From positions 1 through 34,304 of IMG/VR virus record IMGVR_UViG_3300024518_001869: a DNA stretch of 34,304 bases; one strand, given 5' to 3'. Within the stretch, counting starts at the first letter, position 1; each line of letters starts with the position of its first letter. The notes below the pieces were generated by a model. The model was not told where the DNA came from, searched no databases, and saw only the letters and a program-made list of their open reading frames with translations. This stretch comes from a virus. Taxonomy: Duplodnaviria > Caudoviricetes. Below, piece by piece: positions 2,156 to 34,304 of the stretch. Both the position numbers and the translations under genes were made by a program.

Positions 2156-2335
2156 TCACCCGTATGTGTCTAGGAAATCCTTCACCACGTCCTTGCGATT
2201 AGCCTTGAGTGCCGCCAGTTCCTCCGGCGTCACGTCGCGGCCTTCATTGGAAGCTTTGTTGAGAATCTCGCTCGCTTCCGCCGCGGCTTGGAGAAGCGCC
2301 AGAATCAGATTCGTGACGATGATGGCTTGGGGCAT
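2156..2335 (-). CDS. Small 59-aa lysis-module protein with hydrophobic/amphipathic N-terminus
   Basis: Hand translation MPQAIIVTNLILALLQAAAEASEILNKASNEGRDVTPEELAALKANRKDVVKDFLDTYG. GGAG lies upstream and the ORF fills the gap between its neighbours; it is below the ORF-track cutoff. Confidence 0.75.
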   Translation of the reverse strand: MPQAIIVTNLILALLQAAAEASEILNKASNEGRDVTPEELAALKANRKDVVKDFLDTYG

Positions 2336-2338
2336 GAC

Positions 2339-2653
2339 TTACTCCGGCTGTGGCAGGGCGACCAGTGCGGCCCTGACGGTCGCTAGTTGACCGCTGATAT
2401 CGTTCCCGCCCAGGACTAGGGTGTGGGCCACATCCAGCGCCACATCGCCTGTACGGACGTACTGGGCCGCGTCACGGCACTTGTCTAGCGCGATCACGCC
2501 CACGTCGCAGTGTGCCTTGAGTTCTCGGACAGCCGACGTGAAGCCGACTTCGAGGGCGGCGAGTTTCTTGGCGGGAGTGTCGATGGATAGGCCCTGGCAT
2601 GCGGAAAGGACCAACAATACACATGCCAGGGCCATCGCGGGCTGTACCCGCAT
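2339..2653 (-). CDS. Lipoprotein in the lysis module (possible spanin component)
   Basis: MRVQPAMALACVLLVLSA-CQG contains the lipobox LSAC. Start moved from 2800 to ATG 2653, 1 nt after the holin stop; 2635 is an alternative. Confidence 0.7.
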   Translation of the reverse strand: MRVQPAMALACVLLVLSACQGLSIDTPAKKLAALEVGFTSAVRELKAHCDVGVIALDKCRDAAQYVRTGDVALDVAHTLVLGGNDISGQLATVRAALVALPQPE

Positions 2654-2654
2654 T

Positions 2655-2837
2655 CTAGCCGATCGCACGACGGATACCAAGCGCGGAGAGTGCGAGTTGG
2701 ATGGTCGTCTCGGGGTCGATGTTGATCCCGAATGCGGTGAGAATCGAGTTGTCGAACCAGCCGACGATGCCAATAACCAGGAAAACGACACCCGTGGCAT
2801 AGGTCAGCTTGCCCTTGAACAAAGTCATGGGATTCAT
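2655..2837 (-). CDS. Holin-like small membrane protein
   Basis: 60 aa, KGKLTY followed by hydrophobic segments and a basic tail; directly after the endolysin; AGGAG SD. Confidence 0.7.
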   Translation of the reverse strand: MNPMTLFKGKLTYATGVVFLVIGIVGWFDNSILTAFGINIDPETTIQLALSALGIRRAIG

Positions 2838-2846
2838 GCGTATCTC

Positions 2847-3242
2847 CTACGTGTAAGACCAGACAGCCGGTCGAAGCGCGTGCTCGAACTCGCCCGGTTC
2901 CAGTGTGTCCAGGTGGATAAATCGCTTGTCATGCGGGCCGTGTTGCTTGACGCCGATCCCGCGAAACGCCCAGGCGTGAGTCATTATCTTCCAAGCCAGC
3001 GTCCCGGACGCCTGGATGTCCGCCGCCTTGCCCGTGGGGTGCGCCGGCCCACCGCCCACCCGCGCGTTATGCACGGCGCAGCGAAATCCCGACGTGACAA
3101 TCATCGGCGTGTGGATCGATGACCGGAGGCGTTGCAGGTATTCCATGAAATTAGGGGCCATGGCAGCCTGTCCGCCGCAGCAATCCTCGCCGTGACAGCG
3201 GAACTCATCCTCCGAGAAGTTCGGGTACAGGTCCCAGTCCAC
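2847..3242 (-). CDS. Endolysin, peptidase M15A family (Zn D-Ala-D-Ala peptidase-like)
   Basis: PNFSEDEFRC, VTSGFRCAVHNARVGG, HPTGKAADI (H-x6-D) and FIHLD are M15A motifs. Confidence 0.9.
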   Translation of the reverse strand: MDWDLYPNFSEDEFRCHGEDCCGGQAAMAPNFMEYLQRLRSSIHTPMIVTSGFRCAVHNARVGGGPAHPTGKAADIQASGTLAWKIMTHAWAFRGIGVKQHGPHDKRFIHLDTLEPGEFEHALRPAVWSYT

Positions 3243-3616
3243 TACTGGTTGCGCCTAATTTCACCGATGCCGCGGCTAATGTCTTCCAGAAGCGCCCGGT
3301 TCTCCGACACGTCTTCCTGCGTGTCCACCACGATCTGCTCGATCACGGCTTGCCGCTTGTCGATGACGTGGAGCTGCTCCTCTGCGCGGCGAATTTTGTT
3401 CTGTGTCTCTAGCGGGTTCGGGTCGTGGTGTACTCCACGATGGGTCGCGACCGACAGGCGAGTCGTGTCCTGGACCTGCGTCAACAGGTTAATCTGGCCT
3501 TGCAGTGCAACGGCCTTGGTGTCTATCGCCTTGTCCAGGTCGTAGTACGCCCCGAAAATTGCCGCCAGCAACAACAGTGCGGGGATCCCCACTTTCAGGC
3601 CCTCCATGAGAGTCAT
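3242..3616 (-). CDS. Single-TM membrane protein with coiled-coil C-terminus (lysis-associated)
   Basis: N-terminal hydrophobic helix VGIPALLLLAAIFGAYY followed by a helical charged region; its stop overlaps the endolysin start. Confidence 0.65.
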   Translation of the reverse strand: MTLMEGLKVGIPALLLLAAIFGAYYDLDKAIDTKAVALQGQINLLTQVQDTTRLSVATHRGVHHDPNPLETQNKIRRAEEQLHVIDKRQAVIEQIVVDTQEDVSENRALLEDISRGIGEIRRNQ

Positions 3617-19102: not shown

Positions 19103-19562
19103 CTGTCGTCTCCGCTAGTATTTTCAGCATATCATCGATGGTCGCGCCGCCAGCAACCTTGACGCCCCGCTTCGAGCACAGCTTTCGCAACGCGATCAGC
19201 GGATTCTGCGCGGCTTGTTCCTGCCGTTGAGCTTTTGCCAGCTCTCCCGGCGTCGGGATGGCTTCGAGTTCTTCCGGCAACGGAGGAAGTGGCTCCTGAT
19301 CGCTGTTGCGCTGGGCACGGCGGAACGCACCACGATTGATAGGCTCCTTATCCAGGACCCCCGCTTGCTGGGCATTGATCAGCGCGGGGAGGATATGGGG
19401 CTTGGGTGCATCCCGGTCGATCGGGATTTCATAGGCGTCGGCCAGATCAACGAGCTGGCGGCGGCGTAGCGACGTTAGAGGCGTGACCGCTATCGGCATT
19501 TGCCCCGGTAGTGTCGGGCCTTGTACTCCCGACTCCGGGAAACTGTCCGTGAAGTTTGCCAT
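19020..19562 (-). CDS. Hypothetical protein with two helix-extended-helix (Rho-N/LEM/SAP-like) motifs
   Basis: LTSLRRRQLVDLADAYEIPI...ILPAL and LIALRKLCSKRGVKV...DDMLKIL; AAGGA SD. Confidence 0.55.
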   Translation of the reverse strand: MANFTDSFPESGVQGPTLPGQMPIAVTPLTSLRRRQLVDLADAYEIPIDRDAPKPHILPALINAQQAGVLDKEPINRGAFRRAQRNSDQEPLPPLPEELEAIPTPGELAKAQRQEQAAQNPLIALRKLCSKRGVKVAGGATIDDMLKILAETTGESSDSAADSEAGSSGQTEGRHEIPAP

Positions 19563-20532
19563 TTGCTTGTCCTTGTCCGCTTGAATCTTCGGGATTGTAC
19601 GAATCGGTGTTGATCGGTGGCATCGGGAAGCCGGGCGGTGTCGATGGCCCTTCTTTCTTGAACTTCTCCGCTTCCTCCGGGGTCACGTACTGGAACGTGT
19701 CGCCGTCCTGGAGCTTGACAACGGGCTGCTCCTTGTAGCCGTACACGCCGCCGTCCTTGATCGAGTCCACAAGGCTCGTGCCGTGGCTCAATTCGACCTC
19801 CATGCCCGACAGCGATGCCATCGTGACCCACGCTTCCGTGCAAGCCCGCCCGGACTCGGCGTACTCCCGGTTTGGATAGGTGAAGTCGCAGCCGAACAGT
19901 TTCAGCTTCTTGACCCCAATATGCATCGCGTAGGCGATCGCCTGGGCCACGCCGTTGTTGAGATACGGCTTGCCAAGAACCGGCTGCGAGATTTTCGAGA
20001 CCTCGTCGATCGGGTAGTCATAGGACAGGGGGATAACGTCCGGGTAAGCCTTGGACGTGATCACCGGCTTGCCACGGCGCCGCAGCAACGTGAATAGGCC
20101 GGGCTTGAATGTCTCTTGGTCGTGAAGATCGTCCATCCAGAACACGACATCGTGCCAGATCAGGTTCGCCGCCATGTTGATCGCCCAGATTTCATCGGCG
20201 AAGTCCGGCGACGCTTCCTGGGTCAGGACCTTGTTGAACAGGTCCGCCACGGAAGGCCCCATGCCGCACAGAGCGACGGTCTTGGGCGCGTGGTCGAGAT
20301 ACCGGCGTACCGTGCCGTCCTCTTGCTGGACTAGCTTCTCGCGGGGCCTGCGGGCCGCGTGAGCGGCTAATGCTTCCTGCCGGTAGGCTTCCGCCTGCTT
20401 GCCGATTTCCTCGCCAGCGTCTTCCAGCGCGTGGGCGTACTCGATCAGCTTGGCTTTGGTGGCTTTGGTAAGGTCGGGACGGTCTAGGTGGCCGTCGCTA
20501 TCGTCGCGCCGCTGTTCTGAATCATTCGCCAT
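19447..20532 (-). CDS. Putative nonulosonic-acid transferase (CstII/GT42, GT29, Maf-like fold)
   Basis: KTVALCGMGPS ... EIWAIN ... DVVFWMD ... NNGVAQAIAYAMHIGVKKLKLFGCDF follows the order of the CstII/Maf motifs (GNGPS ... N ... SG/A-rich helix-LGxKEIYLxGxDF). Confidence 0.65.
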   Translation of the reverse strand: MANDSEQRRDDSDGHLDRPDLTKATKAKLIEYAHALEDAGEEIGKQAEAYRQEALAAHAARRPREKLVQQEDGTVRRYLDHAPKTVALCGMGPSVADLFNKVLTQEASPDFADEIWAINMAANLIWHDVVFWMDDLHDQETFKPGLFTLLRRRGKPVITSKAYPDVIPLSYDYPIDEVSKISQPVLGKPYLNNGVAQAIAYAMHIGVKKLKLFGCDFTYPNREYAESGRACTEAWVTMASLSGMEVELSHGTSLVDSIKDGGVYGYKEQPVVKLQDGDTFQYVTPEEAEKFKKEGPSTPPGFPMPPINTDSYNPEDSSGQGQANGKLHGQFPGVGSTRPDTTGANADSGHASNVATPPPAR

Positions 20533-25151: not shown

Positions 25152-26593
25152 GACTGGCCTCCGACGATCGGTTTCCTTGGTCCTTTACGCTTGGGCTTGG
25201 CGGGCGGGCGGACAATGCCGTAGCGCCGCATCATGAACGCGTATCGCATCGCGGACATGATGTCGTCACGTTGCGCCACAATGACGCCATCTTTCCTGTG
25301 GTAGAGGCGCTTTTCCTCGAACCACTGGGTTAATGTGTTGAAAACCTTGAATTTGCCCGTTCGCATGTATTCGAATATTTCGATTACACCCGGCTCGCGG
25401 TGGTTGCCGCGCTCGTCGGGATAGTGGGCATGTTCCTTGAGCATCCGCAGGCCGTGACTGCGATATTGGTCTTTCAGGGCCACGCCGGACCCCTTGTCTC
25501 GATTCAGGCCGTCATGCGGCCACGCGGTCGGTATCCAATCGCCGTGCTTCCGCATGGCCTGTGCGTGGTAAACCGGAGTTTCACCGGGAGCGCGATAGCA
25601 GTCGTAGACGTAGATGGTATCCGCGTCACGATCGTGAGCAAGGAAGGCGCCCGCGGCAGGGTGGTCGATCCCAAAATCAACACCGTTAATTCGGGCGAAG
25701 TGTGGCGGTATCTCGAATGGCGGGATAGATATCGCGTCGTCGGCGATCGGAAAGACGCCACCGGAGCCCAGCATTGGCGTCCCGGATACCCTGGTTTCTC
25801 GTTCATGCGGCGGGAAAGACAGCTTGAGCCGCTCTTTCTCGTCCGGGTCCAGGTGCGGCGCGTCGTCCCATCCCACATTCGTCGAGTAAATCCCGCGACC
25901 CGCTTCGGCGTTGATAAAGTGGAGAACAACATCATCCGGACCTAGCAATGGGGTGAACGTGAGGACGATCATGCCCTTGGAATCGGCGGTGCGTGTCAGA
26001 GCCTCCGTGTAGATGTCCATCGGCGGTTCTTCATCGAGCCAAACCCAGTCCAGCTTGGCGCCCTGCCACTTCTTGCGGCCCTGTTCGTAGGTTTTCATCG
26101 AACACATCGACACGCCACCGGCCTTGTGCTTGACCTTGATCGTGTCCACGACCTCGGTCACGCCGGCTTGGCGGTATTTAACCTCGATCAAACTTTCCTT
26201 GGGTATCCAGCCGGTTCCGTGCTCGCCTTCCTTGCCCAATAGCTCGAACTGGACAAGATCGCGTGATGCCTCGCTGGACTCGGACCCGCACCAGCCGCGT
26301 GTCGCGCGGTCCCATTTGCGGCCCTTCCACCATTTCGGATAGAAGCCGGTCAGGTGGCAGGCCATTTCCGCGCCCGCGCTTCGAGTTTTCCCCACCCTGT
26401 TCGCGGCCATCAACATGCGCTCGGGGTTTTCAGCCCCGGCGTTGTGGAAGTCTATTTGCCAGTGATACGCCCCGATATTCGGATGGCCCCACGGCTTATC
26501 GTGGTCGTAGGGCTTCCCGTATTCGAGAAAGAGTTTCCTCTCTCTAGTTCGGCGTTCCAGTTCCGCTAAGGCGCGGTCTTCGGCTAATTTCAT
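25133..26593 (-). CDS. terL: Terminase large subunit (P22-like)
   Basis: Walker A MAANRVGKT, Walker B VWLDEEPP, LTFTP coupling motif, nuclease GVDFG, AWPHDG, DDIMSAMRY. Confidence 0.95.
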   Translation of the reverse strand: MKLAEDRALAELERRTRERKLFLEYGKPYDHDKPWGHPNIGAYHWQIDFHNAGAENPERMLMAANRVGKTRSAGAEMACHLTGFYPKWWKGRKWDRATRGWCGSESSEASRDLVQFELLGKEGEHGTGWIPKESLIEVKYRQAGVTEVVDTIKVKHKAGGVSMCSMKTYEQGRKKWQGAKLDWVWLDEEPPMDIYTEALTRTADSKGMIVLTFTPLLGPDDVVLHFINAEAGRGIYSTNVGWDDAPHLDPDEKERLKLSFPPHERETRVSGTPMLGSGGVFPIADDAISIPPFEIPPHFARINGVDFGIDHPAAGAFLAHDRDADTIYVYDCYRAPGETPVYHAQAMRKHGDWIPTAWPHDGLNRDKGSGVALKDQYRSHGLRMLKEHAHYPDERGNHREPGVIEIFEYMRTGKFKVFNTLTQWFEEKRLYHRKDGVIVAQRDDIMSAMRYAFMMRRYGIVRPPAKPKRKGPRKPIVGGQSWKRAS

Positions 26594-27594
26594 GCAACAT
26601 CGCGGCTATTCCGGTCCAGGAAAGTCTGGTACCAGCCCATATATTGCATCATCCCGGTCTCTAACGTGAACTTTGGCGTCCAGCCGAGCAGGTTCTCGGC
26701 TTTTTGGACACTTAGCGTGCCCCTACGCGGCTTTTCCGGATCATCCGGGAGATATAAAACCTCCGCGCCGGTCTTCTCGACGACGATGTCCGCCAACTCC
26801 TGCAACGAGCGGCCATGCCCGCCCGTGATGTTGAATGTCTCTCCGGCGGAAGTTTGGCGTTTATTTATGATCGACCTTGTGCCAGCCACCAGATCATCGA
26901 TGTAGGTGAAGTCCGACAGGATCGAGCCGTCGCCGAATATGCTGATTGACTGGCCGGCGAACGCCTGTTCCATGAACTTCTGTGTCACCCGCCCCGATAT
27001 GCAGCGCGGGCCGTACAGCGCGGACGGGCGCACGATCGTGGTGTCGATCCCGAACGTGTCCCGATACCCCGCCACCATCTGCTCGCCAGCCGCCTTCATG
27101 CGCGCGTATATCCCGATCGGATTGAGCGGCGTGGTCTCCATGACCGTGCGCCCTTCCGTGTTGCCGTACGCAGTGCTTGAGGAAAACCACACGACATGCG
27201 GTGGCTTGGGCAGGTTACGTGCCACGTCGAGCGTGTTTTGGAGGGTGATCAGGCTGTTGTCGAAAGTCCGCTTGGGGTCCTTGTTGGACCGATCGACGTG
27301 CGCGACCGCGGCCAAGTGGATGATCACGTCCGGCTCCAGCGCGAGAAGCGCGGGGCTCAACTGGTTGTAATCGGCCGCGTCGATCCGGATCACCGGGATT
27401 TCCACGACATTCAGCAAGTTAAGCCTGTGCTCCGTGATCAGCACGGAATCGGCCGGCGACGTGCGATCAGCGCGCAGGCTGTAGTAGTTGTTCACCGACA
27501 GCGAGTCGATCACGGTCACGTTGTTCTTGGCGACCATGCCGAGCGCCATGTGATGCCCGATAAAGCCCGCCCCGCCGATAATCACGATATTCAT
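26590..27594 (-). CDS. NAD-dependent nucleotide-sugar epimerase/dehydratase (extended SDR)
   Basis: GGAGFIG, IHLAA, SSSTAYG, YARMK (YxxxK), RPSALYGP, DFTYIDD. Confidence 0.92.
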   Translation of the reverse strand: MNIVIIGGAGFIGHHMALGMVAKNNVTVIDSLSVNNYYSLRADRTSPADSVLITEHRLNLLNVVEIPVIRIDAADYNQLSPALLALEPDVIIHLAAVAHVDRSNKDPKRTFDNSLITLQNTLDVARNLPKPPHVVWFSSSTAYGNTEGRTVMETTPLNPIGIYARMKAAGEQMVAGYRDTFGIDTTIVRPSALYGPRCISGRVTQKFMEQAFAGQSISIFGDGSILSDFTYIDDLVAGTRSIINKRQTSAGETFNITGGHGRSLQELADIVVEKTGAEVLYLPDDPEKPRRGTLSVQKAENLLGWTPKFTLETGMMQYMGWYQTFLDRNSRDVA

Positions 27595-28691
27595 GTCGCC
27601 TGCCTCACTGGTTCCGCCACGTCACAGGCGATCTTAAATTGCTCAATCTGGAACGCAAGCTGTTGACGCGACAGGTGCGGGCCGCACGACAGGCAGATTG
27701 TCTCACGCGAGATTTTCTCCGCGATCGGGAAATCGCCAGCGGCGTAACCCAGGTCCATGTAGTACGGCGTCAGTGGCGGGATCGGATTGTAATACACGCT
27801 CGTTTCGACCCACCGGGCGTGCATCGTGTCCCGGATCGTGTCCCGCGACATGCCCTCCGGCGCGAATACCGACATGGCATAGGCAGCGCCCGGCATGGAC
27901 TCGATCCGGCCAAAGTCCCGCAGATGGTGGCGCAGGATCGCGTGATTGCTTTCGCGGCGGTCAAGCCACAAGGATTGCTTCTTGAGTTGAGCCAGCCCCA
28001 GCGCCGCCTGCATTTCCGACATTCGGTAGTTCATGCCGATATCGACGAAATTCCCCGCCTCATCCTTGCCGAAGGCACGCAGCCGCTTGGCGCGCTCCGC
28101 AAGCCCTGGGTGCTTGGTCAGGAGCATTCCGCCCTCGCCCGTGGTCATGTGCTTCACGGGGTAGAACGAGAAGGTGCCTACGTCGCCCCACAAGCCCGCG
28201 TGACGGCTCCTGTGGCGTGCCCCTAGGGCAAGGGCGCAGTCCTCGATCACGGACAGGCTGTGCTCGCGTGCGATCTGGTTGATCCGGGCCATGTCGCACA
28301 GTCGCCCGAGATAGTGGACCGGCATGATCGCGGCCGTGCGTCTCGTCAGGGCCTTCTTGATTTCCTCCGGATCGATGTTCCCGGTCGCCGGGTCCACGTC
28401 CACGAATATCGGGTCCGCGCCCACGAGGCTGACAGCAAGCGCCGTGGCGGGGTGCGTCAGGGCCGGGACAATGACCTCGTCGCCGGGTTTGACCAGCATC
28501 AAGCACGCGATATGGAGCGCGGCCATGCACGACGTAACGGCGGTCGCCATGCCGCCCTGAGTGTATTCGGAAAACGCGGCCTCGAACTCGGTCACGCGCG
28601 GCCCGTTGGTCAGGGTGCGCTGCGCGAGCGCGGCGACGACCATGTCGCGGTCATCTCTGCCTATCAGGGGCTTGCCAAATTCAACTCTCAT
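27591..28691 (-). CDS. DegT/DnrJ/EryC1/StrS sugar aminotransferase (PseC/LegC-like)
   Basis: PGDEVIVP, AIMPVHYLG, IEDCA, FSFYPVKHMTTGEGG (PLP Lys), GMNYRMSEMQAALG. Confidence 0.93.
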   Translation of the reverse strand: MRVEFGKPLIGRDDRDMVVAALAQRTLTNGPRVTEFEAAFSEYTQGGMATAVTSCMAALHIACLMLVKPGDEVIVPALTHPATALAVSLVGADPIFVDVDPATGNIDPEEIKKALTRRTAAIMPVHYLGRLCDMARINQIAREHSLSVIEDCALALGARHRSRHAGLWGDVGTFSFYPVKHMTTGEGGMLLTKHPGLAERAKRLRAFGKDEAGNFVDIGMNYRMSEMQAALGLAQLKKQSLWLDRRESNHAILRHHLRDFGRIESMPGAAYAMSVFAPEGMSRDTIRDTMHARWVETSVYYNPIPPLTPYYMDLGYAAGDFPIAEKISRETICLSCGPHLSRQQLAFQIEQFKIACDVAEPVRQAT

Positions 28692-29151
28692 CGCCTGCCT
28701 CGCGTAGATAGGTGTTCTGAATATGGTGGAAGCCGAATTTCTTGAACAGGGCTATCGAGGCGGGATTGTTCGGATTGATATTGGCGACCCAGCCCGCACG
28801 GCGCTCGGACGGCTTGTACGGGAGCGGTTTGAAAGTCACCATCAGGACTCTCAGGGCTTTCGACGCATAGCCCTTGCGGCGGTATTTTTTCAGAATGCTG
28901 ATGCCAATCTCGTTCCGTTCCGTGACACGCAACTGGCCGACCGTGCAAGCTGCTTCCGTATCCAAGATCAGGAACCACCGCGCGAAAGGATGGTCCTCAA
29001 CGAAAGCATCATGTCGCCTCCGGCTCGGCAATTCCTTGTGGCTGATGTTCGTGTGGGCCTCGGACTCGTCCGACCGCTCTTTCAGTATTCTCCATAGGAC
29101 GTCCGCGGCGCCCGGAGAACCATGAACATCTTGTAAAATTACGTTTGACAT
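28681..29151 (-). CDS. GNAT N-acetyltransferase (PseH-like)
   Basis: EIGISILKKYRRKGYAS and NPASIALFKKFGF; start moved to ATG 29151, which has a GGAGG SD. Confidence 0.88.
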   Translation of the reverse strand: MSNVILQDVHGSPGAADVLWRILKERSDESEAHTNISHKELPSRRRHDAFVEDHPFARWFLILDTEAACTVGQLRVTERNEIGISILKKYRRKGYASKALRVLMVTFKPLPYKPSERRAGWVANINPNNPASIALFKKFGFHHIQNTYLREAGDES

Positions 29152-29702
29152 TCTGCCTCCAGTTGCGGGCGTAGCCGCTCCAGGTCTTCCGGCGTGTCCA
29201 CTGTCCACGAGTCTTTCTTCCAGAACGACGTGACGTGTTCACGGTCGTACTCGTTCATGAATGGCAGGCAGCGCAGGAACTCGTCAGTCCACACGCCCTC
29301 GGCCTGGAAGCCCGGTGTCGAGACCGCGGGAGGCGCGTACCGCACACCCCTTTCCAGCCGCTCGACAATCTGGTCGATCATCATCGCGGTTATGAACGGC
29401 GAATCCGCGCACACGCGCACGAAGGCGTCGCAGGGATAGCAGTGAATGGCCCAATCGAACCGCGCCACAACGTCCTTTTCCAGGCCCGTAACGATTTCTA
29501 CGTCCTGACGCGATGTCAAATAATGGAGAAGATCATCATTTTCCTCGGTGGCTGGAATCGCGACCACGGTCTTGTCCACGCTCGCGCCGACGATCCTGTC
29601 CAACAGGATACCGATTAGCGGCTTGCCCGCGACCTCCGCCATGACCTTACCGGGAAAGCGTGTCGAGCCCATGCGGGCCTGTACGATCGTGTTGATGATC
29701 AT
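29139..29702 (-). CDS. Cytidylyltransferase, SpsF/PseF-like CMP-nonulosonate synthetase
   Basis: IVQARMGSTRFPGKVM, VRVCADSPF, REHVT, WTVDTPED. Confidence 0.9.
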   Translation of the reverse strand: MIINTIVQARMGSTRFPGKVMAEVAGKPLIGILLDRIVGASVDKTVVAIPATEENDDLLHYLTSRQDVEIVTGLEKDVVARFDWAIHCYPCDAFVRVCADSPFITAMMIDQIVERLERGVRYAPPAVSTPGFQAEGVWTDEFLRCLPFMNEYDREHVTSFWKKDSWTVDTPEDLERLRPQLEAECQT

Positions 29703-30442
29703 GAAGTCATCTCCTGGACCGCGTCGCGGTAGTCACAAATCACCTTTAATTGGTCCGGCAATATTTCGACAGCGTGGTCCCGGCTTTTTTTGCCACGAGC
29801 GTCCCGAAAATGAACCTCGACCATCGGGCATCCGTGGCTGATCGCGTAGAGTGACGGCCAGATCGTGCCGGAGTGATCGGACAGGCCCATCTGGGTTATG
29901 CGGTGCCTATAGTCGCTCGTCAAAGCCTCTGACAAGGGCGCGGGATATTTTGCAACGCAACTCAAAAACTGACATTCGCGGCCCTTGATCAGTGGCCCGA
30001 TCTTTATCCAGTCCCCGCGCTCCATCATCCCATTCGAGACAATCAGCGGCAAGTCGGTCTCGTCGTATGGGAACGTCATCGCGGCGCGTGACGCGACCTT
30101 GGCTGCGTCGCACAGCTTGAGCAACCGCATGGCCTCGTCCTGGAAGACCGACAGGATGAAGTGGATTCCCGCGTCATGGGCGCGTCGCGAGACTCCCAGC
30201 CACCCGTCATAGCCCAGCACCGTGTCGTTCCAGTACGGCATGCGCTCATCGTCGCCTTCGACGGGGCAGAACAGCGGCGCGTCCTTGACGAACGCCTGAA
30301 ACTTGATCGCGTCCGCGCCACACTCAGCCGCGACCGTGACGAGTTCCTTGGCACGCTCCACGTCGCCGAAGTGATTCGTCCCGGCTTCCGCGATGATGTA
30401 GGTCGGGTTCCCGTTGCCTATCTCGCGCTCGCCTATAATCAT
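29699..30442 (-). CDS. neuB: NeuB-family nonulosonic acid synthase (NeuB/PseI/LegI/SpsE), short form
   Basis: YIIAEAGTNH, GADAIKFQ, KVAS, CVAKYP, GLSDHS, EVHF, RDH; 247 aa, ending before the usual C-terminal AFP/SAF domain. Confidence 0.92.
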   Translation of the reverse strand: MIIGEREIGNGNPTYIIAEAGTNHFGDVERAKELVTVAAECGADAIKFQAFVKDAPLFCPVEGDDERMPYWNDTVLGYDGWLGVSRRAHDAGIHFILSVFQDEAMRLLKLCDAAKVASRAAMTFPYDETDLPLIVSNGMMERGDWIKIGPLIKGRECQFLSCVAKYPAPLSEALTSDYRHRITQMGLSDHSGTIWPSLYAISHGCPMVEVHFRDARGKKSRDHAVEILPDQLKVICDYRDAVQEMTS

Positions 30443-30473
30443 CGCACGCTCCGCATGCTCGAAGTTTCACACA

Positions 30474-31289
30474 TCACGGGAAACACTCCTGCCATTTGCG
30501 GAAGAACTCCGCGACTTGTCCGGGGTCGTCGAACGGGGCCTGGACGGTCCTGTATTGCTCGCTCCTGGCGGCTGTCACGACCAGCCAGTCCGAGTCGCCC
30601 CAGTAGTTCGCGTCTTCCGGCTCGAACCCGGCGAGGCGCAGGGCTGCCTTCAAGGTATTCAATGAGAAGCGGAACGAATGAAGGTCGGCCTTCTGCTTCC
30701 CGAGGTATGCCGACAGGGGCTTCTTGAATGGCACCATCAGGCGCGACCCGGTCGCGACGACGATCCTGCCGTCCGGCGTAAGGCAGTCGCGCGCACGTTC
30801 GAGCATGCCGATGCAGTCGCCGCAGTTCTCCAGGGTCCAGAGGATCGTGACCACGTCAACCTCGCTCGGGACAAACGTCTCGATCGGTCCCTTGTGGCTT
30901 GGTATCCCGGCCATGATCAGCTTCTTGACGTTCTCCTGGGCCGGCTCGACCGCGGACACCACGGCGCCACGCGACCGGATCATCTTGAGAAAGTCCCCCT
31001 CGCCCGCGCCGACGTCCAAGACGCGCTTCTTGTCCCAGCCATATTTCTGATCGAACCATTCCGCCACGAAGAACAGCCTCGCCTGCACGGCGGGCCACTT
31101 CGACGTGTAGCCTTCGCCCCAAATCCGGTCCCAGTCCGCCGCGATCGCCTCGACTGAGCGGCGCTCCTTGGCGTACACGAAACCGCACCCACCGCAGATA
31201 TGCGGGAGACCGTCCGGCTTGTAGTCGCCCGACACGGGGATAGGCGCGCTGTCCGCCGTGCCGCACAAGTCACAAACATGCGTCGTCAT
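30474..31289 (-). CDS. Class I SAM-dependent methyltransferase with N-terminal Cys motif
   Basis: CDLC ... CGGC, VLDVGAGEG, AVEP, LTPDGRIVV; start 31289 by ATGA overlap. Confidence 0.88.
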   Translation of the reverse strand: MTTHVCDLCGTADSAPIPVSGDYKPDGLPHICGGCGFVYAKERRSVEAIAADWDRIWGEGYTSKWPAVQARLFFVAEWFDQKYGWDKKRVLDVGAGEGDFLKMIRSRGAVVSAVEPAQENVKKLIMAGIPSHKGPIETFVPSEVDVVTILWTLENCGDCIGMLERARDCLTPDGRIVVATGSRLMVPFKKPLSAYLGKQKADLHSFRFSLNTLKAALRLAGFEPEDANYWGDSDWLVVTAARSEQYRTVQAPFDDPGQVAEFFRKWQECFP

Positions 31290-32410
31290 TCGGCCCAACC
31301 CTTCCTGTCATGTGCGTCCTCGTTCCAATGCGCGTCTATCACCTGGTCAAGCTGGCCACGCGTCATGTCGAGATATTCAAGAACCTTGTGAATGAATTGC
31401 GCCGGGAGCTCATGGTCGTATTCCAGCGCGAGCTTCATGCCTTGGTCCCTAGTCATGTGCCCGCCTTGTATTAGCCGACTAGCCATCCGCGTGGCGCGGC
31501 CAAAACCAAACTTGACCCACATGAGATAGAAGTCCAGGCCGTCGATCATGTCATCGATCGAGTCGAAGCCCTCGAATGATCCATTGGACTTGCCCCACCA
31601 GCGGACGCCCCAGTGGTTTTGCCAGTCAACAAGCCGGGGGTAATCCGCCACCCGGCCGCGCTCCTGTTGGAAGCCCATCTGCTTGCGCGCGTCCTTGGCA
31701 TTGCGGTAGATATCCCAGTCGAAGAAATACGACCAGTAGTATGCTTTTATTTCGCCTGCGTCTCCCGGATAAATATACGGCGCCAAGTCTCGTTCCGAGA
31801 TGTCGTCGTCCGCCCAGTTCAGCGGATGGTCCCCAACCTGATTTTCAAGCACTTCATCCAGGTTCCGGGTACGGCGCGACTCGTCATCCAGCACGAGCCC
31901 GCCGTAGAAGGACTCACCGTGCTCGGCGTAGAAGACTGTCTTGATCCCGTATGCCTTGGCAACTTGTAGCGGGACACTGTTGACCCCTGCATCATAGTGC
32001 TGCTTGGGGTGCCCACGCTCGATCGTAAATCGTCTAGCAAGAGCGCGACTGACACGCTGATCCACACGATGGTAATGAATATCGAAACCGCTATTACAAA
32101 CAGCATCGAGATTATGACGGCCCACATCAGTCCATAGCATCTGACCATAGCAGACCAGAAGCGGGTTAAGCCCGAAATCATGTTTCAGCCTCCATGCGAT
32201 CATCGCGGAATCCTTGCCGCCAGAAAACGGCACGACACAGTCATAAGGCGCGCTGCCAACAAACCCCGCGATCAGGTTCTTGAACTCGCGCTCGCGCACG
32301 ACCCAGTCAATATTCTTCCTCGCGTCAGCCTCCAGGCACGCATTGCAGCGACCGTCCGTGAACACGACGCGCGGGCGCGTGTCCGGCATGAGACATGTCT
32401 TGCAGATCAT
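31286..32410 (-). CDS. N-acetyl sugar amidotransferase (PseA/WbuX/PtmG family)
   Basis: CKTCLMPDTRP ... CNAC, YDCVVPFSGGKDS (PP-loop), KFGFGRAT; start 32410 by ATGA overlap. Confidence 0.92.
   Translation of the reverse strand: MICKTCLMPDTRPRVVFTDGRCNACLEADARKNIDWVVREREFKNLIAGFVGSAPYDCVVPFSGGKDSAMIAWRLKHDFGLNPLLVCYGQMLWTDVGRHNLDAVCNSGFDIHYHRVDQRVSRALARRFTIERGHPKQHYDAGVNSVPLQVAKAYGIKTVFYAEHGESFYGGLVLDDESRRTRNLDEVLENQVGDHPLNWADDDISERDLAPYIYPGDAGEIKAYYWSYFFDWDIYRNAKDARKQMGFQQERGRVADYPRLVDWQNHWGVRWWGKSNGSFEGFDSIDDMIDGLDFYLMWVKFGFGRATRMASRLIQGGHMTRDQGMKLALEYDHELPAQFIHKVLEYLDMTRGQLDQVIDAHWNEDAHDRKGWAE
31819..32181 (-). CDS. Putative overprinted membrane protein nested out of frame in the amidotransferase gene
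   Basis: GGAGG 7 nt before ATG 32181; 32 consecutive uncharged, mostly hydrophobic residues (18-49); host-frame codons over this stretch are strongly T-ending. Confidence 0.55.
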   Translation of the reverse strand: MISGLTRFWSAMVRCYGLMWAVIISMLFVIAVSIFITIVWISVSVALLLDDLRSSVGTPSSTMMQGSTVSRYKLPRHTGSRQSSTPSTVSPSTAGSCWMTSRAVPGTWMKCLKIRLGTIR

Positions 32411-32715
32411 TGTACAGCTCTCCAAACCGCCGCCTGACGGCCGCTTTTGTTTCTGCGGCGCACGCCCGTGTCCTCGATATACCCAGCGGCGTGCAACTCC
32501 GAGACACGTGGGCGAATCGACAGCACTGAAAAACCAAGCACGGACGAAATCTCATCGGCGGTCCTAGTGTGGCCCGCGCGGTAATAGTCGAGCACCAAAC
32601 GGCGAAGCGTTTCCGCCTTTGGGGCAATCGCCTCCGCAGCCACAACAGATGTCTCCGGCGCCTCGGTCTTGTGTCCAGGGAACAGAGGGTACGTCTCGCC
32701 AGGGTCCATCGTCAT
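32407..32715 (-). CDS. Winged helix-turn-helix DNA-binding protein
   Basis: TADEISSVLGFSVLSIRPRVSELHAAGYIEDTG...SGRQAAVW; AAGGA SD. Confidence 0.75.
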   Translation of the reverse strand: MTMDPGETYPLFPGHKTEAPETSVVAAEAIAPKAETLRRLVLDYYRAGHTRTADEISSVLGFSVLSIRPRVSELHAAGYIEDTGVRRRNKSGRQAAVWRAVQ

Positions 32716-32742
32716 AGTCCTTTCATGTTGACCGTCGCATAC

Positions 32743-33480
32743 CTAGCGGCATGCTCGGGGAGGACCGAAATGGTCTTCGACCATCGGCCTCATAGGAATC
32801 CCGGCTTCCGCGATCTTGCGCTTGAACATCGCGACGTGTTTCCGCGTGAAATGGAAGATATTCGACGTCGCGCACGCGGACGCGCCAGCGTTAAACGCAT
32901 CTATCATGTGTCCCGGTACCCCGCAGCCCGACATGGCGATGATGGGCTTGTTAAACAGCGCCGCCAGCTCGCGGATAAAGTCCACGTCATAGCCCTGGAG
33001 AGACCCGTCCCGTGAAAACGTCTGGGACAGAATCTCGCCGCACATCGAGAACGAAAGACCGTCATAGTTCGGCGGCCGCCGCTCAGGGGGGTGCGCCTCG
33101 ACACCCGCGACAACCGACGACGAGCCCAGCTTGCCTACAAGCCGCTCGATGAACATCACGTCATTCAAGGCATGATGCCCAACGACAATCTTATCAGCGC
33201 CAGCATTCATCAGCTCCCGCGCATAATCCCACGTCCTGACATGACCACCAACAGCCAGCGGCAGGAACAAATCACCCGATAGACGCTCGACAACCTCGAT
33301 AAACCGCGTCGTCGATGTCGCGTCAGGCTCCGGCGTGATGTCCAAGACAACAAGCTCGTCAGCGCCCTCCAGATCAACGAAATCCAGAGAATACGTCCGG
33401 TCAGCACGGAAATGCTTGGAACGAACCAGCTTCCCGTCAGAAACCGTCAAGGCAAGGATCATGCGGCGCTTCAACGCCAT
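32743..33480 (-). CDS. hisF: HisF-like TIM barrel (WbuZ-type, partner of sugar amidotransferases)
   Basis: GADELVVLDIT, PLAVGGHVR, AGADKIVV, RDGSLQGYD, PIIAMSGCG, SNIFHF. Context and catalytic-site changes argue against a role in histidine synthesis. Confidence 0.85.
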   Translation of the reverse strand: MALKRRMILALTVSDGKLVRSKHFRADRTYSLDFVDLEGADELVVLDITPEPDATSTTRFIEVVERLSGDLFLPLAVGGHVRTWDYARELMNAGADKIVVGHHALNDVMFIERLVGKLGSSSVVAGVEAHPPERRPPNYDGLSFSMCGEILSQTFSRDGSLQGYDVDFIRELAALFNKPIIAMSGCGVPGHMIDAFNAGASACATSNIFHFTRKHVAMFKRKIAEAGIPMRPMVEDHFGPPRACR

Positions 33481-34016
33481 TTTTTCTCATCCTCATCGTA
33501 TCCCGCTGTCTCCGCCGCACGGCGGGCATTGGCCAGAATACCCCTGGCCTTGCGCCGACGCTTGCGAGCACGCTTGTCAGCGTCCGTGTCCACAACCGCC
33601 TCGTCCCGCAAGCACGCGCGCAAGGTCCTGACCTGCTTCCAGGAGAAAACCAGCCGGCGCGGCCCACGGCCATTCCGCAACTGACTAAGCGCGCTCTTGC
33701 CCATCGAATGGATAAAAGCCAGCGCGCTCCGTGGCAGGTCATCCGCCTCCATCCGTCGCTTGAGACCCACGACCAACTCGCGCCAGCCATCAATACGCCG
33801 CCAGTTGTCAGGACTCCCGCGCTTGTCACCCAAATACATCCAAACCCCAATGTCCGGCGTAAGAAGCGCCTCAAACATCCGCCGAAGCCCTAGGCGGCCC
33901 TTGGAGAGCCGTATCCCGTCCTCAGCACGGGCTCCCAAAACCGCGTTCTTGAGAGCACGCGCATACGGGTCGAATCCATGGCCAACCGCGCCACCCTGCT
34001 TGGGAGACCTAGACAT
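33471..34016 (-). CDS. Basic hypothetical protein, first gene of the operon
   Basis: Long open frame whose stop overlaps the hisF-like start. Start is uncertain (34016 or 34058); no family recognised. Confidence 0.5.
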   Translation of the reverse strand: MSRSPKQGGAVGHGFDPYARALKNAVLGARAEDGIRLSKGRLGLRRMFEALLTPDIGVWMYLGDKRGSPDNWRRIDGWRELVVGLKRRMEADDLPRSALAFIHSMGKSALSQLRNGRGPRRLVFSWKQVRTLRACLRDEAVVDTDADKRARKRRRKARGILANARRAAETAGYDEDEKKWR

Positions 34017-34108
34017 GACTGAAACAAAAGACGCGCCCGCGACAAGCCAGAAGGACATGGCATGCAGCGGACGCGTCCAGGATGCTAGGGGGTAACATCA
34101 TGAAATCA

Positions 34109-34137
34109 TGAATAACCGAGACATGAAAACGTGTCAA
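34109..34137 (-). promoter_or_regulatory. Candidate sigma70-type promoter for the leftward operon
   Basis: Perfect TTGACA at 34137-34132, 17-nt spacer, then a weak -10 TATTCA, in an AT-rich gap just downstream of a terminator. Confidence 0.4.
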
Positions 34138-34153
34138 TAGTGTAGCGTAGTGT

Positions 34154-34183
34154 AAGAAAAAAGCCCCAGTGCGGACCGGGGCT
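34154..34183 (-). terminator. Rho-independent terminator
   Basis: Minus strand AGCCCCGG-TCCGCA-CTGGGGCT-TTTTTCTT: an 8-bp GC stem with one G.U pair followed by a U tract. Confidence 0.7.
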
Positions 34184-34304
34184 GCACCGTCGCACGCTAC
34201 CGCGTGCTCAGGGGGGCCAAGAGGCCCATAGTCGTGTGGGCGGGGGACGGGGTTTCCGAACCTCCCACAGGGAGGGGAATGCGCCCCGCGTCCTAGCCAC
34301 GGTG

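Follow-up and report, generated by a model that had tools for sequence, protein, structure and literature searches.

The wbuX gene of a tailed phage probably carries a second, genuinely overprinted gene in its +1 frame, with translation starting at an ATG at 32181 on the minus strand. With less assurance, we lean to the reading that this gene encodes a recently overprinted single-pass membrane protein, likely an accessory inhibitor of a membrane protein in the host envelope. The DNA under study, called the window throughout, is a tailed-phage fragment of 34.3 kb in which a terminase large subunit and a capsid of the N4-gp56 type were recognized; the DNA of locus L001 is identical to it and runs on to the terminase small subunit, and the three sequencing runs that contain most of the window are labelled seawater metagenomes, two of which may be where this DNA came from. 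Nested membrane genes in phages are of a known kind. What is new here is repeated, seemingly independent gene birth at one tailed-phage locus, accompanied by matched negative controls (the other frame, another gene region, other genes and cellular homologues); a literature search, mainly of openly accessible papers, gave no account of genes nested within wbuX or hisF of phages, nor of a phage-borne operon of this type.

The nested frame and its host gene

The host gene and the parts of the nested frame lie as follows.

31286 to 32410, minus strand: host gene (ancestral frame), WbuX-family N-acetyl sugar amidotransferase of 374 amino acids (TIGR03573)
32189 to 32193, minus strand: Shine-Dalgarno (SD) GGAGG of the nested ORF, 7 nt 5' of ATG 32181
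31819 to 32181, minus strand: nested ORF of 120 amino acids, shifted by +1 relative to the host gene (32410-31286)
31984 to 32181, minus strand: nested residues 1-66, in common with the closest relative, L047; N-terminus with two basic residues, membrane helix and short polar tail
32035 to 32130, minus strand: hydrophobic run, nested residues 18-49 (host codons 94-125)
31819 to 31983, minus strand: Ser/Thr-rich tail, predicted to be disordered; absent in L047

By sequence, the host frame is a member of the WbuX family: it scored 257.8 bits against TIGR03573 (cut-off 203.2) and matched the profile of 8wex at E 3e-60. The family is recognized by a PP-loop, SGGXDS, and a tetracysteine motif, according to the report on the Legionella enzyme LpNASAT, 8WEX (PMC10607449), and the window protein likewise has both, with the PP-loop SGGKDS at residues 63-68 and Cys 3, 6, 22 and 25; its amidotransfer activity is putative. 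It belongs to a phage-borne subfamily that is only 28-45% identical to its 80 best cellular matches, and these cellular sequences, unlike the phage subfamily, are without nested membrane ORFs. Annotated phage records yielded no relative of wbuX, and a single-protein genome scan gave no match.

The earlier note on this DNA had drawn attention to a perfect GGAGG at 32193-32189, formed by the host codons TGG AGG, and these coordinates were indeed correct, as was the shifted frame of 120 amino acids with its hydrophobic run (ORF 32181-31819). The duplex of this element with the anti-SD was calculated at -9.3 kcal/mol, and an in-frame TGA (32187-32185) immediately precedes the ATG. Two qualifications are in order, namely that AGG, cited as a rare Arg codon, is uncommon but not very rare (89 of 733 Arg codons), and that the SD, put forward as independent of the other two signals, is together with the ATG tied in part to the host protein, as L025 has the same two elements and no hydrophobic stretch. 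A second start at Met19 was considered and rejected; it is lost in the strain variant X1, and ATG 32181 is therefore the shared start. An assembly artefact was ruled out, since contigs of sequencing run X4 span 31807-32200 with 0 differences to the window, and a contig of run X3 spans 31244-32215 with 4.

The nested protein consists of a 17-residue N-terminus with two basic residues, followed by a helix of 21 to 32 residues. AlphaFold, run on a two-row alignment, gave a helix at residues 3-56 (pLDDT 87-97 at residues 11-50) and a disordered tail; being a low-depth model of a hydrophobic peptide, it adds little beyond one helix and a disordered tail. From the two basic residues before the helix and the lack of net positive charge right after it, the predicted topology is N-in/C-out, and we infer insertion as a signal anchor. 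No homologue of the nested protein was found in a search with candidates of 66-210 amino acids or in the ESM Atlas, nor for residues 1-66 among 1.84 billion representatives, and no family match was obtained in Pfam, NCBIfam or PHROG. These blanks fit a de novo origin, but gene callers also skip nested frames. The host protein, on the other hand, has 1364 homologues at E<=1e-60, and an ancient, widespread host frame combined with a lineage-restricted nested frame is the pattern that would mark de novo overprinting.

The T-rich patch and its persistence in relatives

Host codons 94-125 are strikingly biased at their third positions (T 22, C 7, G 3, A 0; n=32), which bears out the count reported in the earlier note, although the lack of A adds little (0/16 four-fold sites in the patch versus 16/151 elsewhere). 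Among the 36 other genes, the best 32-codon window reached 16 T, in hisF, and the next best 13. The hisF window, at 33255, is without a clear nested ORF. In 3000 synonymous shuffles under each of three nulls, none reached either 22 T or the +1 Kyte-Doolittle 19-mer value of 2.97; it is to be noted that the genome-usage null took the portal gene out of frame, while the other two synonymous nulls are unaffected. The open length of the nested frame, however, was not significant, being reached by 575-819 of the 3000 shuffles, and ORF length was rejected as evidence. The same shift of third-position T into hydrophobic residues, to which the earlier note had likened the patch, is described for phiX174 gene E, which overlaps gene D in +1 (PMC8227390).

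Several other origins of the patch were tried and rejected. The earlier note had named an AT-rich donor as a possible source, but there is no excess of A, and four-fold sites are poor in purines both in the window patch (2/16, P 0.002) and in L047 (3/14, P 0.002), so the patch is not from such a donor; the same depletion rules out simple C-to-T drift. RNA structure was rejected as its cause, since the folding of the region did not exceed that of shuffled sequences (z 0.13 and 1.37). An antisense gene was also rejected: L047 has a 146-residue antisense ORF over the region, and the window has none of at least 50 residues spanning the patch.

Relatives were collected in scans that yielded 37 metagenome and 11 viral loci; the alignment held 41 loci and the window, after removal of window copies, viral duplicates and the partial distant matches L011 and L014. 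The closest host protein, that of L047, is 81% identical to the window over residues 2-140, and L042 is the downstream half of the L047 gene from a sister strain. Together they share 99 of 196 synonymous sites with the window, which is close to the saturation value of 0.41. Host codons 71-77, which hold the SD and ATG, are identical in L047, the +1 frame is open, and over the patch T3 is 19/32 and the 19-mer hydrophobicity 2.82, with the hydrophobic core in common at about 32121-32059. Nonetheless, 13 of the 26 synonymous sites in codons 94-125 differ, and a count by hand over codons 94-120 gave 6 gains and 5 losses of T. Hydrophobicity of the helix is thus kept while the DNA sequence has turned over and stayed T-rich. 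The suppression of synonymous variation that had been anticipated was not seen in the helix.

In L047, the +1 frame ends at host codon 143, after 66 residues, and the Ser/Thr-rich tail must therefore be dispensable; present in the window, it was dropped as evidence, and the claim of a conserved open frame stands for residues ~1-66 and fails beyond. By hand, none of the 10 listed differences of X1 makes a stop, nor does any of the 5 listed among the 9 of strain variant X3; one strain-variant difference removes an Asp at the helix start and one changes Ala to Val, and X1 shows a net loss of two T-ending codons at 94-99. In L047 and the strain variants, the SD, the ATG and the open frame, whose conservation the earlier note had proposed to test in homologues, are intact, and so is the hydrophobic core; neither this check nor that for an AT-rich donor, both set out in the note as refuting, spoke against the nested gene. 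Relatives of at most 69% identity, including L017 (69%), lack this nested ORF, which is present in two phage species only, the window and the L047/L042 group. The start signals and open frame appear to be kept by selection in these relatives, in one other species.

These data bear on a neutral explanation, namely that an old T-rich patch, from a mutation burst or foreign donor, is decaying in both lineages next to an SD and ATG that arose by chance. T3 is indeed raised in the genes of this genome end (0.22-0.26 versus 0.08-0.20), the chance of AGG and CAT being retained is by itself P 0.11, and the probability of both observed T counts under neutral decay of an all-T ancestor rises to 0.095 at the upper, most favourable bound of divergence and retention. 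The point estimate, however, is P 0.005, and the unraised A3, the depleted purines, the failure of all 3000 within-gene shuffles and the family-wide enrichment with clean controls described below also stand against such a relic, which we regard as very unlikely. Codons 56-76 differ at only 3 of 21 third positions between the window and L047, and this near-identity of two co-occurring phages could be a recombination tract. As a separate observation, the minus-strand genes at 31286-34304 have T3 of 0.22-0.26 and a mostly low A3.

Nested frames across wbuX and hisF

The +1 frame was then considered over the whole family, counting 34 of 42 rows (left out were 2 duplicates, 5 rows without the 5' part or too short, and 1 with an internal stop). 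An SD, an ATG and at least 45 open +1 codons within host codons 1-140 were found in 19/34 homologues (3.9-4.4 expected), and an SD-led +1 ORF with a membrane helix in 6/34 (0.03 expected). At p<=0.006, a +1 helix occurs in 6 of the 42 rows: the window, L047, L027, L033, L028 and L029. Their ORFs start at four sites (host codons 77, ~45, ~55 and ~116), each behind an SD of -6.9 to -12 kcal/mol; an upstream SD with ATG, present in all six, has a background of 3-14%. Those of L027 and L033 have two hydrophobic segments. The helix label needs at least three changes on the quick tree; the rows are related and not phylogenetically independent, so that the counts overstate independence. Beyond the window and L047, the SD-led hydrophobic +1 ORFs of wbuX, of 85-86 amino acids and regarded as independent, are:

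L027, 979 to 1236
L033, 1635 to 1895
L029, 4347 to 4604
L028, 3525 to 3782

A further start, at host codon 37, is shared by 11 rows, whose synonymous divergence between subgroups is ~0.5-0.7, near saturation. All 11 frames are open for 106-167 codons, and over codons 37-113 openness is found in 11/11 rows with this start (1.3 expected) versus 7/19 without it (2.7 expected). By inspection, six of the 11 begin with a twin-arginine (Tat)-like leader, although in the two tested, L021 and L018, Pfam TAT_signal scored below cut-off (E 0.003 and 0.023, respectively); several others have no hydrophobic leader. The subclade of the window and L047 is without the codon-37 ORF on the quick tree, and their own nested gene therefore looks like a later replacement. 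These ORFs, behind an SD, lie at:

L018, 1262 to 1765
L021, 4104 to 4607
also in L038, L040, L036, L044, L020, L022, L030, L039 and L045

The neighbouring hisF-like gene behaves similarly, with an SD-led helix ORF in 3/14 rows (0.02 expected), plus L018. The viral scan with hisF returned the same phage only. The hisF ORFs start at an A-D-E motif, and loop insertions of the host protein read as helix in +1. The locations are:

32743 to 33480 of the window, minus strand: HisF/WbuZ-like gene, no significant nested membrane ORF (p 0.13)
L021, 2645 to 2806; L028, 2542 to 2700; L029, 3290 to 3445; and L018, close to the start of that locus: hydrophobic +1 ORFs of 51-53 amino acids
L029, 3897 to 3989; L021, 3849 to 3995; L007, 3355 to 3555; and L031, 3349 to 3462: free-standing hydrophobic ORFs of 30-66 amino acids between hisF and wbuX

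The controls were clean. In wbuX, +1 codons 180-320 gave 1/29 (1.4 expected) and the +2 frame 0/34. Cellular wbuX, with the proviso that these controls are only 28-45% identical to the phage subfamily, gave an SD-led +1 ORF in 1/80 and a helix in 0. Genome-wide, a nested SD-ATG-helix ORF was present in 4 of 193 genes of 11 phage contigs (0.7 expected), which cover 7 of the 13 terL loci used, and three of the four were wbuX or hisF. The DegT aminotransferase genes of L029 and L022 also have hydrophobic +1 segments (p 0.003 and 0.007), with weak SDs.

Two explanations that dispense with a functional nested protein can be weighed against this pattern. The first places selection on the RNA or DNA, favouring a U/T-rich patch as unstructured RNA, as a protein-binding site or as a U-rich membrane zip code; the hydrophobic frame would then be an untranslated by-product. 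Third-position T and +1 hydrophobicity do amount to a single signal, the folding of the patch is matched by shuffles, and an SD with ATG can come from host codons, as in L025. But T is raised at third positions only, even in the variable loop insertions of hisF; the start signals of all six helix ORFs and the open codon-37 frames would be unexplained; and no promoter- or terminator-like site was found in the wbuX gene. We consider this explanation improbable. The second, which we find no more probable, holds that the helix or signal is a targeting tag only, whereby co-translational targeting would keep the late polycistronic mRNA, and with it the sugar enzymes, at the membrane, and any hydrophobic or signal sequence suffices. 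It would account for the free turnover of sequence, the varied start sites (host codons 37, 45, 55, 77 and 116), the restriction to the 5' portion of the operon's leading genes and the Tat-like leaders. Against it, 15/34 homologues have no such ORF in wbuX, several of the codon-37 ORFs lack a hydrophobic leader, and the free-standing small membrane ORFs of the hisF-wbuX region (L007, L018, L021, L029 and L031) suggest that the proteins themselves are wanted.

The hisF-like and wbuX genes at the head of the phage sugar operon may form a standing nursery for envelope-targeted genes, in which lineages independently wrote one-helix, two-helix and Tat-signal +1 proteins and swapped them, an interpretation that falls slightly short of an even chance. 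A parallel exists in the leviviruses, where single-gene lysis (sgl) proteins evolve repeatedly in the +1 frame of rep, with rapid gain, loss and replacement; some of these are reported to have been shown lytic, and these ssRNA phages are under size limits and need a lysis gene (PMC7693330). The likeness to that account lies in the repeated, sequence-unrelated, SD-led membrane ORFs at different +1 positions of one host gene. In contrast, the present, putative hot spot is a sugar-modifying enzyme gene with its hisF neighbour, in phages of at least 34 kb, and the nested ORFs of wbuX overlie a conserved region just past the PP-loop. If true, dsDNA phages would have in this nursery their own version of the sgl hot spot, from which new host-envelope inhibitors could be drawn. 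The nested ORFs also offer a natural series of SD, start and helix arising under a conserved enzyme, and about 10 small proteins, unannotated so far and within reach of synthesis, that could be screened for toxicity and for suppressors, as was done for the ssRNA-phage lysis proteins that gave new envelope targets.

Genome context and possible function

The genes relevant to function lie at the following window positions.

26590 to 33480: sugar operon, between terS and terL
19447 to 20532: MptE/Maf-like gene (weak match), adjoining the capsid gene and two small Thr/Ala-rich genes
2156 to 3616: lysis cassette, with a 124-residue helix-and-coil ORF, endolysin, a 60-residue two-helix ORF, a lipoprotein-like ORF and a 59-residue ORF

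The operon comprises, in order, HisF/WbuZ-like, a small HTH gene, the WbuX amidotransferase, methyltransferase, NeuB, cytidylyltransferase, GNAT, DegT aminotransferase and epimerase genes, and its product would presumably be an acetamidino-modified nonulosonic acid; no HisH/WbuY glutaminase gene was identified in it. G001 and G003 are syntenic with this operon, and G003 has an integrase and a repressor. The MptE/Maf-like gene beside the capsid gene is a candidate virion glycosyltransferase, suggesting glycosylation of the virion. Its relatives often lie directly 3' of wbuX.

From its place between terS and terL, the nested gene is probably expressed late. Ribosomes would load at the GGAGG and ATG 32181 on the late transcript, and the protein, made alongside the sugar operon and inserted as an N-in/C-out signal anchor, may then inhibit a membrane protein of the host envelope, as phiX174 E does with MraY (10.1101/2023.10.16.562596). 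Such inhibition could leave the envelope weaker or masked, and sugar precursor would be saved for use by the phage pathway. By analogy, the foremost candidates for the target are host membrane enzymes of cell wall or LPS synthesis that work with the lipid carrier or with UDP-GlcNAc, although this specific guess is more likely wrong than right. As the phage has its own endolysin-centred cassette, the nested gene is probably accessory and not the primary lysis gene.

The same cassette could instead supply the partner, if the nested product were a real membrane protein acting as an antiholin-like timing factor on the phage's own holin. Its late position and predicted N-in/C-out single helix would suit this role, and a 60-residue two-helix holin-like ORF (2837-2655), with two close Met codons, adjoins the endolysin, which matches phrog_894 at E 1e-20. 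Yet the nested ORF lies ~29 kb from the cassette, and the recurrence of unrelated one-helix, two-helix and Tat-like versions, with many relatives having none, is a poor fit to a specific holin partner, leaving this an unlikely alternative to inhibition of a host envelope protein. Holin features are themselves wanting, given the lack of a Pfam, NCBIfam or PHROG match and the distance from an endolysin with its own two-helix neighbour.

Among other small envelope genes, the nested gene resembles phiX174 E in being a +1 gene with a helix drawn from T-ending host codons, its own start and a small membrane product. E, however, serves a small ssDNA phage as its only lysis gene and has been proven to inhibit MraY, whereas the present gene resides in a tailed dsDNA phage with an endolysin cassette, and its product has no sequence similarity to E. 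The N-terminus of E is out, unlike the predicted N-in of the window protein. A small SD-led +1 ORF with a transmembrane helix, as in single-gene lysis (PMC7693330), is present here, but a sole lysis gene belongs to small ssDNA or ssRNA phages without endolysin, and this phage has a terminase, an N4-gp56-type capsid and an endolysin. These contrasts extend to the spanins. In lambda, the embedded o-spanin gene Rz1 is nested in Rz, which is likewise an out-of-frame envelope gene within a tailed-phage gene; unlike Rz1, however, the window protein has no lipoprotein signal and has its single N-terminal Cys (15) ahead of the helix, the host gene codes for an enzyme instead of an i-spanin, and a separate lipoprotein-like ORF resides in the lysis cassette. 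By the features compared, the nested ORF is thus outside the single-gene lysis, holin and embedded-spanin families, but as a gene birth it would work like E or sgl, judging from sequence evidence. Finally, past the window end, L001:1-2300 carries oppositely oriented small genes, several of which, by eye, follow a repeated motif of ~20 bases that contains an SD.
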